DNA of 64,000 bases from assembly GCA_965203225.1 (NCBI GenBank), contig CBDBBW010000007.1, positions 423,574-487,573 of the forward strand, written 5' to 3'. Under the pieces are notes generated by a model that made no database searches, had not been told where the DNA came from, and worked only from the letters and a program-made list of their open reading frames with translations. Below, piece after piece: positions 57,240 to 64,000 of the stretch. The position numbers and the translations under genes were made by a program. How positions within the stretch are numbered: the first letter of the stretch is position 1; every line of letters starts with the position of its first letter. This DNA is from Bdellovibrionales bacterium. GTDB taxonomy: Bacteria > Bdellovibrionota > Bdellovibrionia > Bdellovibrionales > UBA1609.

Positions 57240-57580
57240 TAAGAGAAAGTTTTGAAAAAAATACACAAGAGGTAAAAAGAGGGAAAGATTTTTTTAACAT
57301 ATCTGATCATTTAAGCGCAAGAGGAGATTTGCCTCGAGCAAAATGGTGGCTGGAAAAAGCGGCTAAACAAGATTTTGCTCTGGCTCAGTATAAATTAGCT
57401 AGGATGTATTCTAAGGGAGAAGGAGTGGAGCAAGATCTACATCGAGCAAGAGAGTGGTATGAAAGAGCGGCTAAACAAGATTTTGCTCTGGCTAAAACAA
57501 TCTTGGATAAGGTGTTTAAGAAAAAAGAGAAGAAAAATAAATCCTTCTTAAAAAAATGCTTAAATATATTCTTAGATTGA
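57240..57580 (+). pseudogene. 5'-truncated Sel1-repeat paralogue (linker plus 2 Sel1 units)
   Basis: LRESFEKNTQEVKRGKDFFNISDHLSARGDLPRAKWWLEKAAKQDFALAQYKLARMY... is collinear with residues about 260 onward of 57905..60556 and with 61450..62352. Confidence 0.6.
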
Positions 57581-57911
57581 AAAAGTTTTTTTCAGTTTAT
57601 ATTTCCTGTATCTTAAAAGTTACTTTGGAAAGAGAAACAAATAACACATAAAAGAAGCTGTTGAAACTATCCTGTCTGACAAATATATTTTTAACTTTGG
57701 CTTTCTCTAAAAGACGCAGTAAAAAAAGAAATAAGAGAGCAGTTAAGGTCTTACTGCTTTTTAAGCTTTGGAAAAGAATATACAAAAGAAATCATTTAAA
57801 GTTTAAACAGAGGTGTGTAATTTTTATTCATAATTTTACAATTATCTGGAATGATTTAGCAAATTATGGTAAAAAAACCATAGTTTGAATAAGAATCGGA
57901 GATAATGATGA
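57559..57911. repeat. 353-bp 5' cassette (intergenic region + RBS + ATGATG), copy 1
   Basis: Same length as 62356-62708 with only a handful of mismatches. A partial third copy at 63081-63233 carries an internal deletion. Confidence 0.9.
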
Positions 57912-60556
57912 TAACAAAACCAATAATTAAGAATAATATATGGATTGACAGGTTATATTATATTTTCTTTCCGAGCGCATTAAAATTCTTGTTAAGAGCT
58001 GTTAAGCTTTCTCTGTTTCTTTTTTGTGTTTCAGCATCTATAAAAATTCAAAGCAACTCTAAAATATTGATAGAGCCTTTTTCTACGGCTTTTTCTGAAG
58101 AGTTGACTATTGAGAAAGCAAAAATAGCTAAAGCCGTATGGCAAATAGAAGTAAAAGAGGGGACAGGAACTGGTTTTTTTATATCAGAGAATAAAATAGT
58201 TACAAACGCTCATGTAATTAGTAATGTAAAAGATACAGAAGAGATAACAATAGTTCAGGAAGGAAATCCGAGACGATTAAAAGCCAACAAAATAGTAAGG
58301 CTGTCAATAAGATATGATCTTGCTCTTTTAAAAGTGGATGGAGTTGTTTCTGATTTCTTGAGTTTGCCAGAAGATCCATTAAACTCTTCAAATGTATATG
58401 CTCTTGGATATCTAAAAGGTCAGTTGCAAGAAATAAGGCAAACAGGTGTTTTAAAAGGAGATTCCTTTTTTTCAGATAAATTTGATATAAGCGGAGCCAG
58501 CGGCAGTCCTCTTTTAAATGAGGCTCATCAATTAGTGGGAGTATTATATCAACAGAATAAAGTACTATATTCACAAAGCAGTTACAATCGCCGCATCTTT
58601 ACCAATATCTTTTTTATGGGTTTAGAAACATTAAAATCTTTTATAAGAGATGAATATTTTTTATGTGAAGGCAATATTCAAGAAAGTTTTAAATCATTAA
58701 TAAAAAGTGTTGAAAAAAATCCACAAGAGGTAAAAAGAGGGAAAGATTCTTATAACATATCTGATTATTTAAGCGAAAGAGGAGATTTACTTCGAGCAGA
58801 ATGGTGGCTGGAAAAAGCGTTTAAACAAGGTTATGCTCCAGCTCAGTATGACTTAGCTGTGATGTATTATAATGGAAAAGGAGGAGTGAAAGATCTACCT
58901 CGAGCACTAGAGTTGTATGAAAGAGCGTCTAAACAAGGTTATGCTCCAGCTCAGTATAACTTAGCTGTGATGTATTATAATGGAAAAGGAGGAGTGAAAG
59001 ATCTACCTCGAGCACTAGAGTTGTATGAAAGAGCGTCTAAACAAGGTTATGCTCCAGCTCAGTATAACTTAGCTGTGATGTATTATAATGGAAAAGGAGG
59101 AGCACAAGATCTACCTCAAGCAAAATGGTGGCTGGAAAAAGCGTCTAAACAAGGTTATGCTCCGGCTCAGTATAACTTAGCTAATATGTATTATGATGGA
59201 GAAGGAGGAGCACAAGATCTACCTCAAGCAAAATGGTGGCTGGAAAAAGCGTCTAAACAAGGTCATGCTCCGGCTCAGTTTAGATTAGCTAATATGTATT
59301 ATGATGGAGACGGAGGAGCACAAGATCTACCTCGAGCACTAGAGTTGTATGAAAGAGCGTCTAAACAAGGTTATGCTCCAGCTCAGTATAACTTAGCTGT
59401 GATGTATTATAATGGAGACGGAGGAGTGAAAGATAGACCTCGAGCAATAAAGTGGTATAAAAAAGCGTCTAAACAAGGTTATGCTCTGGCTCAGTATTTC
59501 TTAGCTAAGATGTATTATGATGGAGGAGCACAAGATCTACCTCGAGCAGAACGGTGGCTGGAAAAAGTGTCTAAACAAGTTAATGTTCCGGTTCAGTATT
59601 TCTTAGCTAATATGTATTATGATAGAGCAGGAGAAGCAAAAAATCTACCTCGAGCACTAGAGTTGTATGAAAGAGCGTCTAAACAAGGTGATGTTCTGGC
59701 TCAGTTTAGATTAGCTGTGATGTATTATAGAGCAGGAGAAGTGAGAGATCTACCTCGAGCAAGAAAGTGGTATGAAAGAGCGGCTAAACAAGGTTATGCT
59801 CCGGCTCAGTATTTCTTAGCTGATATGTATTATGATGGAGAAGGAGGAGTGAAAGATCTACCTCGAGCACTAAAGTGGTATAAAAAAGCGGCTAAACAAG
59901 GTTATGCTCCGGCTCAGTATTTCTTAGCTGATATGTATTATGATGGAGAAGGAGGAGTGAAAGATCTACCTCGAGCACTAAAGTGGTATAAAAAAGCGGC
60001 TAAACAAGGTTATGCTCTGGCTCAGCATAGCTTAGCTAAGTTGTATTATTATGGTGGAGAAGGAGGAGTAGAAGAAGATAGACCTCAAGCAAGAAAGTGG
60101 TATGAAAGAGCGTCTAAACAAGGTTATGCTCCGGCTCAGTATTTCTTAGCTGATATGTATTATGATGGAGAAGGAGGAGCACAAGATCTACCTCGAGCAC
60201 TAAAGTGGTATAAAAGAGCGGCTGAACAATTTTTTGCTCCGGCTCAGTATTTCTTAGCTTGGATGTATTATAATGGAGAAGGAGTAGCACAAGATCTACC
60301 TCGAGCACTAGAGTTGTATGAAAGAGCGTCTAAACAAGGTTATGCTCCGGCTCAGTATTTCTTAGCTAAGATGTATTATGATGGAGAAGGAGGAGTAAAA
60401 AAAGATAGACCTCAAGCAATAAAGTGGTTGGAAAAAGCGGCTAAACAAGGTCATGTTGAGGCTAAAAAAATCTTGGAGAGGTGTGTAATAAGAAAAAATA
60501 TGGGTTTAGAAACATTAAAATCTTTCATAGTGGCTAAGTTAATGTGCAGATTCTAA
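57905..60556 (+). CDS. membrane-anchored/secreted trypsin-like serine protease fused to ~17 Sel1 repeats
   Basis: N-terminal hydrophobic segment. The catalytic triad context is GTGFFISENKIVTNAHVI (His), YDLALLKV (Asp) and ISGASGSPLL (Ser). Repeated 36-aa Sel1 units A.KWYEKAAKQGYAPAQYNLA.MYYNGEGV..D follow, several of them identical at DNA level. Confidence 0.85.
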   Translation: MMITKPIIKNNIWIDRLYYIFFPSALKFLLRAVKLSLFLFCVSASIKIQSNSKILIEPFSTAFSEELTIEKAKIAKAVWQIEVKEGTGTGFFISENKIVTNAHVISNVKDTEEITIVQEGNPRRLKANKIVRLSIRYDLALLKVDGVVSDFLSLPEDPLNSSNVYALGYLKGQLQEIRQTGVLKGDSFFSDKFDISGASGSPLLNEAHQLVGVLYQQNKVLYSQSSYNRRIFTNIFFMGLETLKSFIRDEYFLCEGNIQESFKSLIKSVEKNPQEVKRGKDSYNISDYLSERGDLLRAEWWLEKAFKQGYAPAQYDLAVMYYNGKGGVKDLPRALELYERASKQGYAPAQYNLAVMYYNGKGGVKDLPRALELYERASKQGYAPAQYNLAVMYYNGKGGAQDLPQAKWWLEKASKQGYAPAQYNLANMYYDGEGGAQDLPQAKWWLEKASKQGHAPAQFRLANMYYDGDGGAQDLPRALELYERASKQGYAPAQYNLAVMYYNGDGGVKDRPRAIKWYKKASKQGYALAQYFLAKMYYDGGAQDLPRAERWLEKVSKQVNVPVQYFLANMYYDRAGEAKNLPRALELYERASKQGDVLAQFRLAVMYYRAGEVRDLPRARKWYERAAKQGYAPAQYFLADMYYDGEGGVKDLPRALKWYKKAAKQGYAPAQYFLADMYYDGEGGVKDLPRALKWYKKAAKQGYALAQHSLAKLYYYGGEGGVEEDRPQARKWYERASKQGYAPAQYFLADMYYDGEGGAQDLPRALKWYKRAAEQFFAPAQYFLAWMYYNGEGVAQDLPRALELYERASKQGYAPAQYFLAKMYYDGEGGVKKDRPQAIKWLEKAAKQGHVEAKKILERCVIRKNMGLETLKSFIVAKLMCRF

Positions 60557-63097: not shown

Positions 63098-63227
63098 GAG
63101 ATCAGTTAAGGTCTTACAGTTTTTAAGCCTTGGAAAAGAATATACAAAGAAAATCATTTAGAGTTTAAACAAATGATTTAGCAAATTATGGTAAAAAAAA
63201 TCATAGTTTGAATAAGAATCGGAGGTA

Positions 63228-64000
63228 ATGATGATAAACAAACCAATAATCCCGAGTGCATTCAAATTCTTGTTAAGAGCTGTTAAGCTTTCTCTGTATC
63301 GAGCAAGAGAGTGGTATGAAAAAGCGTCTAAACAAGGTTATGCTCAGGCTCAGCATAACTTAGCTTTGCTGTATGATATGGGAGTGCTGTATGATCTGGG
63401 AGAAGGAAGAGCGCAAGATAAACAGCGAGCAAGAAAGTGGTATGAAAAAGCGTCTAAACAAGGTCATACTCAGGCTCAGCATAACTTAGCTAGGATGTAT
63501 TATAATGGAGAAGGAGTGGCGCAAGATAAACATAGAGCAAGAGAGTTGTTGGAAAAAGCGGCTGAACAAGGTAATGCTCCGGCTCAGAATAACTTAGCTG
63601 TGATGTATTATAATGGAGAAGTGGAGCCAGATCTACATAGAGCAAGAGAGTTGTTTGAGAAATCAGCTGAACAAGGTTATGCTGAGGCTCAGAATAACTT
63701 AGCTGTGCTGTATTATAATGGAGAAGGAGTGGAGCAAGCTCTACAGCGAGCTCAAGCAAGAGAGTCGTATAAAAAAGCAACTGAACAAGGTGATGCTGAG
63801 GCTCAGAATAACTTAGCTATGCTGTATTATCATGGAGCAGGAGTGGCTCAAGATAAACATAGAGCAATAGAGTTGTATGAAAAAGCGTCTAAACAAGGTA
63901 ATGCTCCGGCTCAGCATACCTTAGGTTTGCTGTATAATAGGGGAGAAGTAGTGGAGCCAGATCTACATAGAGCAAGAGAGTTGTATGAAAAAGCATCTAA
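63228..64000 (+). CDS. Sel1-repeat protein, 3' end beyond window
   Basis: Own translation: MMINKPIIPSAFKFLLRAVKLSLYRAREWYEKASKQGYAQAQHNLA.... It keeps the first ~20 codons of the 57905 gene and then jumps into Sel1 units. The frame is open to the window end, so it is absent from the ORF track. Confidence 0.65.
   Translation, partial: MMINKPIIPSAFKFLLRAVKLSLYRAREWYEKASKQGYAQAQHNLALLYDMGVLYDLGEGRAQDKQRARKWYEKASKQGHTQAQHNLARMYYNGEGVAQDKHRARELLEKAAEQGNAPAQNNLAVMYYNGEVEPDLHRARELFEKSAEQGYAEAQNNLAVLYYNGEGVEQALQRAQARESYKKATEQGDAEAQNNLAMLYYHGAGVAQDKHRAIELYEKASKQGNAPAQHTLGLLYNRGEVVEPDLHRARELYEKAS

Follow-up and report, generated by a model that had tools for sequence, protein, structure and literature searches.

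In Staphylococcus aureus, the spl cluster (splA-F / splD1-4) on nuSa-beta consists of 4-9 tandem paralogues, includes truncated or pseudogene copies, differs in copy number, and is accompanied by a restriction-modification system and tRNA genes (PMC6805111). This cluster is the closest analogue of the locus described here, an array of protease-Sel1 genes at the 3' end (positions 57236-64000, + strand) of a 64-kb stretch of contig CBDBBW010000007.1, which was analyzed as a whole and is termed the window below. Like spl, the array consists of same-strand tandem paralogues with a chymotrypsin-fold protease, lies on an island with a restriction-modification system and a tRNA gene, contains truncated members, and varies in copy number. 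Unlike spl, each intact protease forms a fusion with 3-15 Sel1 repeats and begins with a long conserved N-terminal leader; conserved blocks of ∼350 nucleotides (nt) lie between the genes, whereas spl is one compact operon, and the host is Oligoflexia-like rather than a Firmicute. The Spl proteins share only ∼20-25% sequence identity with the window protease.

Other precedents concern the repeat. Sel1-like repeat (SLR) families such as the Helicobacter pylori Hcp paralogues comprise multiple paralogues, for which positive selection and redundancy have been discussed (PMC3608669). The genes described here resemble Hcp in their Sel1 repeats, their 36-amino-acid period, and their many paralogues, but Hcp proteins are small, repeat-only, and encoded at dispersed sites, whereas here the repeats follow a protease as its C-terminal extension and the genes stand in tandem. 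A trypsin-(Sel1)n protein, Pelodictyon luteolum YP_374752.1, was listed in 2008 as the product of a single gene of unknown function (PMC2605481). The order of protease followed by Sel1 is the same in that protein; the tandem array, the conserved 5' block, and the analysis of selection set the present locus apart from the listing. Expression-site/silent-cassette loci, such as Neisseria pilE/pilS, Borrelia vlsE, and Anaplasma msp2, offer a further comparison. The array shares with them partial copies beside a full-length gene, conserved blocks that flank variable segments, and signs of gene conversion within the family. Unlike them, it has no single expression site, its partial copies either carry their own start and cassette or are plainly 5'-truncated, and it shows no donor-to-recipient tracts.

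We favor, with moderate confidence, the view that the locus encodes a repertoire of exported proteases whose specificity loops and Sel1 modules are diversifying under selection, and that it has been remodeled by recombination and is carried on an exchangeable island. The region opens a tandem same-strand array belonging to a lineage-specific multigene protease/Sel1 family. The window enters the array only at its own 3' end and contains five gene units (0-4) and three copies of a shared 5' block (cassettes A, B, and C), all on the same strand, with unit 4 running past position 64000. Self-comparison revealed no further cassette or protease copies in the first 57 kb or elsewhere in the 64-kb window.

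Protease domain, leader, and Sel1 repeats

Unit 1 (57905-60556, + strand; 883 amino acids) is the sole intact gene in the window. It comprises a leader (residues 1-46), a protease domain (residues ∼66-240), a Sel1 array (58796-60469), and an aberrant patchwork tail (60478-60556). Pfam models matched it as Trypsin_2 (59.9 bits, cutoff 27.6), Trypsin (34 bits, cutoff 20.6), and Sel1 (E = 5e-135). The catalytic triad of His103 (58211-58213), Asp138 (58316-58318), and Ser199 (58499-58501) occurs in canonical order within the motifs TNAH, DLAL, and GxSGxP. All 24 members of the family alignment have His103 and Asp138, and 22 of them have Ser199 (GASGSP). P0012 and P0015, from the genomes that carry the related arrays L113 and L082 (see below), have GAGGGP instead of GASGSP, so that the catalytic Ser is replaced by Gly, and are possibly pseudo-proteases kept within their arrays. 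The nearest PDB sequence found by phmmer was that of SplE (E = 4e-8), followed by SplF, SplD, SplA, and SplB and then by V8-type glutamyl endopeptidases. An AlphaFold2 (AF2) model of unit 1 had a mean predicted local distance difference test (pLDDT) score of 77, with 83-95 in the protease core, and Foldseek matched this model with probability 1.0 to MarP, Esp, SplE, V8, and exfoliative toxins at target-normalized template-modeling scores of 0.5-0.64. Judged by these matches and by the predicted structure, the unit 1 protease is a chymotrypsin-fold serine peptidase of the Spl/V8 (S1B-like) type with a double beta-barrel.

Conservation across the family alignment is highest in the first ∼46 residues of the protein. 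They include a positively charged n-region, an h-region with the sequence LSLFLFCVSAS, and a possible cleavage site between SAS and I, and the AF2 model places a helix at residues 11-47 ahead of a disordered linker. The leader would fit a Sec-type export signal whose n-region is unusually long.

When Pfam Sel1 (PF08238) repeats were mapped one by one, the Sel1 array of unit 1 (58796-60469, + strand) was resolved into 15 full repeats of 34-38 amino acids plus a half cap, with a 36-amino-acid period; Tandem Repeats Finder returned the corresponding 108-nt period for the DNA. The initial annotation, made from the sequence of the window, had correctly recognized one full-length unit with His, Asp, and Ser, although its estimate of ∼17 Sel1 repeats was too high. 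It had also described the units at 58846-58953 and 58954-59061 as identical; they are nearly so, with one mismatch in 108 nt. Identity between Sel1 units is 93-96% within a gene versus at most 86% between genes, and each Sel1 unit of unit 1 is closest to another repeat of that same gene. This pattern indicates recent intragenic expansion and homogenization, as judged from the nucleotide comparisons, and not exchange between units; the suggested conversion of Sel1 units between genes was not borne out, as no Sel1 unit of unit 1 is nearest to one in another unit. In SLR and tetratricopeptide repeat (TPR) folds, the repeats serve as protein-interaction modules, and by analogy the Sel1 repeats of this family may bind proteins and thereby recruit substrates or partners.

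Selection on the mature protein

A codon analysis of eight full genes from three genomes, carried out by the Nei-Gojobori method (NG86), which is approximate for recombining, AT-rich paralogues, pointed to DIVERSIFYING selection in the protease domain, with a ratio of nonsynonymous to synonymous substitution rates (dN/dS) of 1.69 (bootstrap interval, 1.08-2.93). The value for the whole mature region was 1.56 (1.16-2.25), and that for the leader was 0.38-0.56, with an interval that includes 1. Within the protease, hypervariable patches were located at residues 82-87, 105-109, 184-196, and 216-239; these positions fall directly ahead of the first core strand, right after the catalytic His, immediately N-terminal to the catalytic Ser, and beyond the VGVLY strand, respectively. 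In the canonical chymotrypsin-fold topology such loops shape the substrate pockets, and by this analogy the hypervariable patches are likely to be substrate-pocket loops. When unit 1 was compared to unit 2, 28 of the 36 mismatches in 447 nt fell at codon positions 1 and 2. As estimated from these codon comparisons, the mature protein is under diversifying selection; the leader and the DNA framework remain similar among copies.

Paralogues and related arrays

Only 27 close relatives of the protease were found among 5.8e9 proteins. At least five further intact paralogues (P0002, P0003, P0028, P0004, and P0029) are encoded on the contig that contains the window; they are 383-429 amino acids long and have 3-4 Sel1 repeats and tails like those of units 0 and 2. 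These paralogues were assigned to the source genome because the database protein P0019 is unit 2 and because a RadA match, P0033, is 100% identical to the RadA of the window. Searches with RadA and SucC assign the window to an uncultured lineage resembling Oligoflexia/Bdellovibrionota, the named matches being an "Oligoflexia bacterium" (77% identity) and Bdellovibrionales (∼55%). Arrays of the same type, with all genes on the same strand, occur in three other genomes: there are five intact genes in L001, four genes and a scrap of cassette and start in L113, and two genes and a scrap of Sel1 in L082. The three arrays lie at different loci. In L113, positions 12051-12244 hold a partial cassette, a start, and 20 codons, after which the cassette restarts before gene 2, leaving junction debris as in the window.

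The protease and Sel1 occur together in 71 of the 88 nearest cluster representatives at 50% identity. The fusion is uncharacterized yet, to judge from these representatives and the 2008 listing, not unusual, contrary to the initial annotation. When the family alignment was used to scan GTDB species genomes, only distant proteases emerged, with at most 38% identity over the full domain and no Sel1 by a motif screen. JGI metagenomes and IMG/VR likewise contained no close relatives (at most 36% identity in full-domain matches), and these two collections gave no sign that the array is phage-borne.

Damaged units and the question of decay

The other four units in the window have all lost sequence, through truncation or deletion. 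Unit 0 (57236-57580, + strand) is a 5'-truncated remnant composed of linker, one full Sel1 repeat, a capping half repeat, and a tail ending in ...TILDKVFKKKEKKNKSFLKKCLNIFLD and a stop codon. It has neither a start codon nor an upstream cassette and begins abruptly in the linker before Sel1; its segment 57236-57340 matches 58694-58798 of unit 1 at 89.5%, and its Sel1 match in Pfam has E = 2e-15. The last ∼80 nt of unit 1 are a patchwork in which the Sel1 cap runs into two scraps, one of 11 nt from the cassette and one of 31 nt from the protease (60499-60529 matches 58615-58645 at 97%); the gene ends without an LFKKKEK tail, and no cassette lies behind it. The next ∼0.9 kb (60557-61472) are unrelated filler made of minus-strand gene remnants, including a scrap from the C terminus of an N6/N4 methylase at 60877-61191. 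A 61-nt repeat (82% identical) is present at 54806-54866 and at 61408-61468, where it directly adjoins the truncated 5' end of unit 2; it may be a remnant of a repeated gene or mobile element involved in the truncation of that unit. Unit 2 (61473-62352, + strand) begins mid-protease without an upstream cassette or start codon and retains the Ser half of the protease, the linker, three Sel1 repeats plus cap, and a tail ending in ...TILEILFKKKEKQNPPALNK and a stop codon; it is 92% identical to 58354-58800 of unit 1, and its Sel1 match has E = 2e-42.

Units 3 and 4 are of another kind. In the 131-amino-acid open reading frame (ORF) of unit 3 (62702-63097, + strand; Sel1 match, E = 4e-26), the start codons are fused in frame, at codon 2-3, to Sel1, with no signal and no protease. 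In unit 4 (63228-64000, + strand, running off the window), the start and 22 N-terminal codons, which carry a 14-codon in-frame deletion, are followed from about codon 23 by at least six Sel1 repeats. The hydrophobic core of the leader and the entire protease are gone from both, and any translation products would consist of repeats alone and stay in the cytoplasm; both units are probably non-functional. All three of their deletion junctions are in frame, for which the chance is ∼1/27, but this outcome needs no selection because register-preserving recombination between repeats gives the same result. The earlier description of jumps from codon 2 or about codon 20 into Sel1 agrees with units 3 and 4, and these two are indeed internal-deletion derivatives; the same label does not suit the Ser-only unit 2, which is 5'-truncated, or unit 0, which is 5'-truncated as well. 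That there are five units was also correct, but they do not each come with a cassette and start: there are only three cassettes, units 0 and 2 have none, and none follows unit 1. Similarly, the repeated Shine-Dalgarno (SD) sequence and ATGATG start are present as described, although a Sel1 gene end with LFKKKEK is not common to every unit, being absent from the tail of unit 1.

Such damage would be expected if the array were a gene graveyard, that is, if the family were degenerating in a host-dependent genome reduced to about 1.3-2 Mb, the window array had no function, and the likeness between its parts were left from past duplications. The state of four of the five units, the scrambled tail of unit 1, the scraps of methylase, NYN, and other genes around the array, the loss of the catalytic Ser from P0012 and P0015, and a cassette that evolves at about the neutral rate (see below) all fit this explanation. 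It accounts poorly for unit 1, which retains an 883-codon ORF and its triad, for the five other intact paralogues, and for the arrays of intact genes in three other genomes; moreover, dN/dS in the mature protein is significantly above 1 instead of near 1, with only the leader lower. We regard decay of the whole family as unlikely, though the most serious alternative to a diversifying protease repertoire.

The shared 5' cassette

Cassette A (57559-57911, + strand) contains the last codons of the conserved tail of the upstream gene (KCLNIFLD and stop), an intergenic block, an SD sequence (GGAG, 57898-57901), and the ATGATG start. Cassette B (62356-62708, + strand) has the same length of 353 nt and is 99.2% identical, with three mismatches, at 57607, 57666, and 57716 in cassette A; the equal length and few mismatches given in the initial annotation were thus confirmed. 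So was the deleted copy, cassette C (63081-63233, + strand), which is both shortened and more diverged: it is without the distal 160 nt and without the equivalent of 57811-57850. The region 63081-63250 aligns to 57718-57927 with 75% identity when gaps are counted, and cassette C itself is 89% identical to A and B and equally near to the L001 cassettes. The GGAG sequence and ATGATG start precede units 1, 3, and 4, with the starts at 57905, 62702, and 63228. The intergenic blocks of L001 and L082 are 87-98% identical to cassette A, and the L113 cassettes keep only the proximal ∼135 nt. Most array genes are ∼280-410 nt apart with a promoter-like site between them; L001 g2 and g3 are separated by 6 nt.

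The best sigma-70-like site in the cassette is a candidate promoter, TTGAAA-17-TATATT, at 57661-57689 (+ strand), which recurs at the same cassette position in L001 (4477, 8135, and 9746). An assignment of this site as the single promoter was dropped, as it is not in every cassette, and it is kept here as a candidate. An 11-bp hairpin, CAAAUUAUGGU...ACCAUAGUUUG, lies directly 5' of the SD sequence (57860-57887, + strand) in all cassette copies, and the putative 220-nt leader RNA (57696-57915) folds better than shuffled sequences (z = -2.96). The changes within the hairpin are one-sided, a single compensatory pair was found in the consensus fold of the leader, and an Rfam search with the cassette returned nothing near any gathering score. 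We make no claim of a structured RNA because there is no Rfam match and only one compensatory pair.

Divergence among cassette copies (∼10%) equals the synonymous divergence of the family, and a special constraint on the cassette was rejected on that ground. The exceptions to this level of divergence are cassettes A and B and the blocks upstream of L001 g4 and g5, which are 100% identical over ∼366 nt.

Recombination in the family

The near-identity of cassettes A and B and the identity of the L001 g4/g5 blocks, the latter lying ahead of protease domains that are ∼90% identical, point to recent conversion or duplication tracts. A permutation test on run lengths gave its lowest p-values for within-genome pairs (minimum p = 0.001), and junction scraps occur in both the window and L113. 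As far as these comparisons can indicate, recombination has shaped the family, as had been proposed: near-identical 5' blocks stand beside diverged coding sequences, the Sel1 units are homogenized, and the permutation test and junction scraps agree. One extension of this idea is that the shared blocks, with the 5' cassette and leader at one end and the Sel1 units and LFKKKEK tail at the other, are built-in recombination anchors and that the array, fragments included, acts as an island-borne, population-level generator of diversity in the specificity loops and repeat number of an exported protease, so that a secreted enzyme and not a surface antigen would be varied; we consider this quite unlikely.

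The initial annotation had gone further and suggested an expression site of the kind seen in antigenic variation. Under such a model of antigenic or phase variation, segmental gene conversion from silent truncated paralogues would diversify one expressed gene, with the cassette and tail as anchors. A conserved framework with hypervariable patches, truncated copies adjoining a full-length gene, near-identical cassettes A and B, in-frame deletion junctions, and conversion-like tracts among the L001 paralogues are all features that such a system might show. The partial copies in the window are nevertheless poor donors. Instead of a single promoter-bearing expression locus with promoterless donors, the window has three cassettes with SD sequence and start, of which units 3 and 4 retain two; these units have no protease hypervariable region to donate. 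In the alignment of units 1 and 2, the longest identical run is 74 nt and the mismatches are scattered, and neither this alignment nor the comparison of Sel1 units, which are gene-specific and at most 86% alike between genes, revealed mosaic tracts in unit 1 traceable to the partial copies. The source genome also has at least six intact paralogues, and related genomes have arrays of 4-5 intact genes. Because the partial copies are 5'-truncated remnants or start-bearing derivatives without a protease segment, because many intact paralogues exist, and because no donor tracts are seen, the expression-site model is unsupported, and we judge it improbable.

Genomic island, probable horizontal exchange, and neighboring genes

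After a tRNA-Asp gene at 43676-43752, the GC content falls from 39.9% in the core to 30.9% in the island that contains the array, and it is 31% in the protease part. This low-GC island holds a PD-T7-4-like gene, a type II methylase, a gene without a family, an Avs2 STAND nucleoside triphosphatase (NTPase), an HTH_17 gene, scraps, a protein with 35-amino-acid repeats, and the array. The three co-oriented genes that follow the tRNA (44138-47066, + strand) encode a DUF4145/PD-T7-4-like protein, a type II N4/N6 DNA methylase with HTH_17, and a 373-amino-acid protein without a family, which is possibly the restriction enzyme. The STAND NTPase (48129-52685, - strand; 1518 amino acids) matches PADLOC Avs2 models with E = 0 and is an Avs2-type antiviral defense gene. 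Directly upstream of the array, an ORF of 318 codons (56050-57006, - strand) contains 4.8 tandem repeats of 105 nt (35 amino acids; 93% identical) and has no convincing Pfam family. The L001 array adjoins a tRNA-Arg gene and an integrase scrap. In L082, a patatin gene, a gene for a DncV-like nucleotidyltransferase, and a third gene (674-3442) resemble a CBASS (cyclic oligonucleotide-based antiphage signaling system) set and, with a helix-turn-helix (HTH)/M78 pair, lie ∼5 kb upstream of the protease-Sel1 genes. L001 and L113 share a block of orn-like, rodZ-like, TPR, ndk, sucDC, and mdh genes, with the arrays on opposite sides of it. A common locus for the window and L001 arrays, suggested by RNase_T neighbors, was rejected, as these proteins are unrelated (26% over 57 amino acids).

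Synonymous divergence (dS) between family genes was 0.03-0.13 for the window versus L001 and 0.13-0.19 for L001 versus L113. Housekeeping genes gave 0.26-0.56 for L001 versus L113 and 1.3-2.2 for the window versus its nearest RadA relative (81% amino acid identity). Apart from the identical P0033 on the same contig, no RadA in the database exceeded 81% identity to that of the window, and no SucC exceeded 89% identity to that of L001. L001 and L113 are thus the closer genomes, yet their family genes are more diverged than those of the window and L001, and this incongruence between gene and genome distances leads us to infer horizontal exchange, on the presupposition that the RadA of L001 and the SucC of the window genome are in the database, since the loci share no housekeeping gene. 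As gauged by these distances, the array has probably been exchanged between related lineages on an island.

The company that the array keeps raises the possibility of an anti-phage or conflict system, with the protease as effector, the Sel1/TPR-like repeats as sensor, and an arms race with phages as the source of diversity. The array shares its low-GC island with Avs2 and a restriction-modification system, the L082 array is near patatin and DncV-like genes, and defense genes typically show dN/dS above 1 and horizontal transfer. The protease domain also matches the PADLOC models RT-Protease_XI (RT, reverse transcriptase), LmuA, and Avs1b with E-values of 1e-6 to 1e-17, and there are weak TPR-S matches. 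The PADLOC matches, however, are confined to the generic protease domain (residues ∼67-266), Pfam gives only Trypsin and Sel1/TPR-like domains, and no RT, NTPase, or LmuB partner is present, the neighbors within the array being copies of the gene itself. Defense effectors are not usually encoded in multi-copy tandem arrays, the nearest characterized relatives are secreted proteases, and the conserved hydrophobic leader with its positive n-region suggests export. The defense-gene neighborhood and the likeness to LmuA, Avs1b, and RT-protease effectors leave a defense role that we rate as very improbable. Finally, although 353-nt cassettes and 108-nt Sel1 units are the type of sequence that confuses assemblers, we give almost no credence to repeat collapse or mis-joining as the origin of the truncated units and identical cassettes, given that the same type of array occurs in independent assemblies from other samples (with a junction scrap in L113 too), that the junctions contain unique scraps and diverged copies (cassette C is 89% identical to A and B), and that unit 2 is a called protein in two sources.

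Several features outside the island were also observed. A segmental duplication spans 38605-39584 and 40675-41039, in which 38935-39234 corresponds to 40675-40974 (95%) and 38605-38890 to 39299-39584 (95%). It has produced a chimeric ORF (39231-39566) that fuses a fragment of S-adenosylhomocysteine hydrolase to the second of two SWIB-domain gene copies, of which the first has 27-nt lysine-rich repeats at 38432-38620. Three tandem 76-nt units (95-98% identical) occupy 42240-42488, between ahcY and an oligoribonuclease-like gene. A 634-amino-acid protein (5334-7238, + strand) has the unusual combination of an N-terminal response-regulator receiver and a DnaJ-like J domain (residues ∼412-521).

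Discussion

In the diversifying protease repertoire that we favor, each complete unit consists of a putative export leader, a Spl/V8-type protease, and a variable number of C-terminal Sel1 repeats, and the ∼350-nt block between units supplies the tail of the preceding gene, a probable promoter and leader, the SD sequence, and the ATGATG start. The array would be a set of proteases that differ in specificity for host or prey proteins, without switching from one to another at a time. Homologous and short-homology recombination between the 5' cassette, the leader, the 108-nt Sel1 units, and the 3' tail would duplicate, convert, and delete units; in the window it would have expanded unit 1, left units 0 and 2 as remnants without their 5' parts, and turned units 3 and 4 into in-frame deletion derivatives. 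The whole resides on a low-GC defense/mobile island beside tRNA-Asp and has probably moved between related lineages. Within this scheme, the anatomy, the family, the fold, dN/dS, the footprints of recombination, and the island setting are observed, and export, a targeting role for the Sel1 repeats, the promoter, the horizontal transfer, and prey or host proteins as targets are deduced from the patterns described above.

Several observations weigh against this proposal, beside the defense setting and the approximations attached to the dN/dS and distance estimates given above. With four of its five units damaged, the stretch of array in the window may be mostly dead DNA. The likeness among cassettes may reflect the youth of the family and not function, given that they diverge at about the synonymous rate. 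The TTGAAA-17-TATATT site is missing from cassette C, from the block of L001 g1, and from the L113 cassettes, and promoter-like matches in the window are not enriched over shuffled sequences. The predicted signal peptide, for its part, is a call from sequence features and the AF2 helix.

If the proposal is correct, these small-genome Oligoflexia would possess a secreted-protease repertoire under diversifying selection, with variation placed beside the catalytic residues, a eukaryote-like binding repeat attached to the enzyme, and exchangeable islands as carriers. The comparison also corrects the tempting inference that truncated paralogues beside a full-length gene amount to an antigenic-variation locus. 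The family would then suggest a function for the widespread, uncharacterized protease-Sel1 architecture and would offer a handle on how uncultured, probably predatory or host-dependent bacteria engage their targets.

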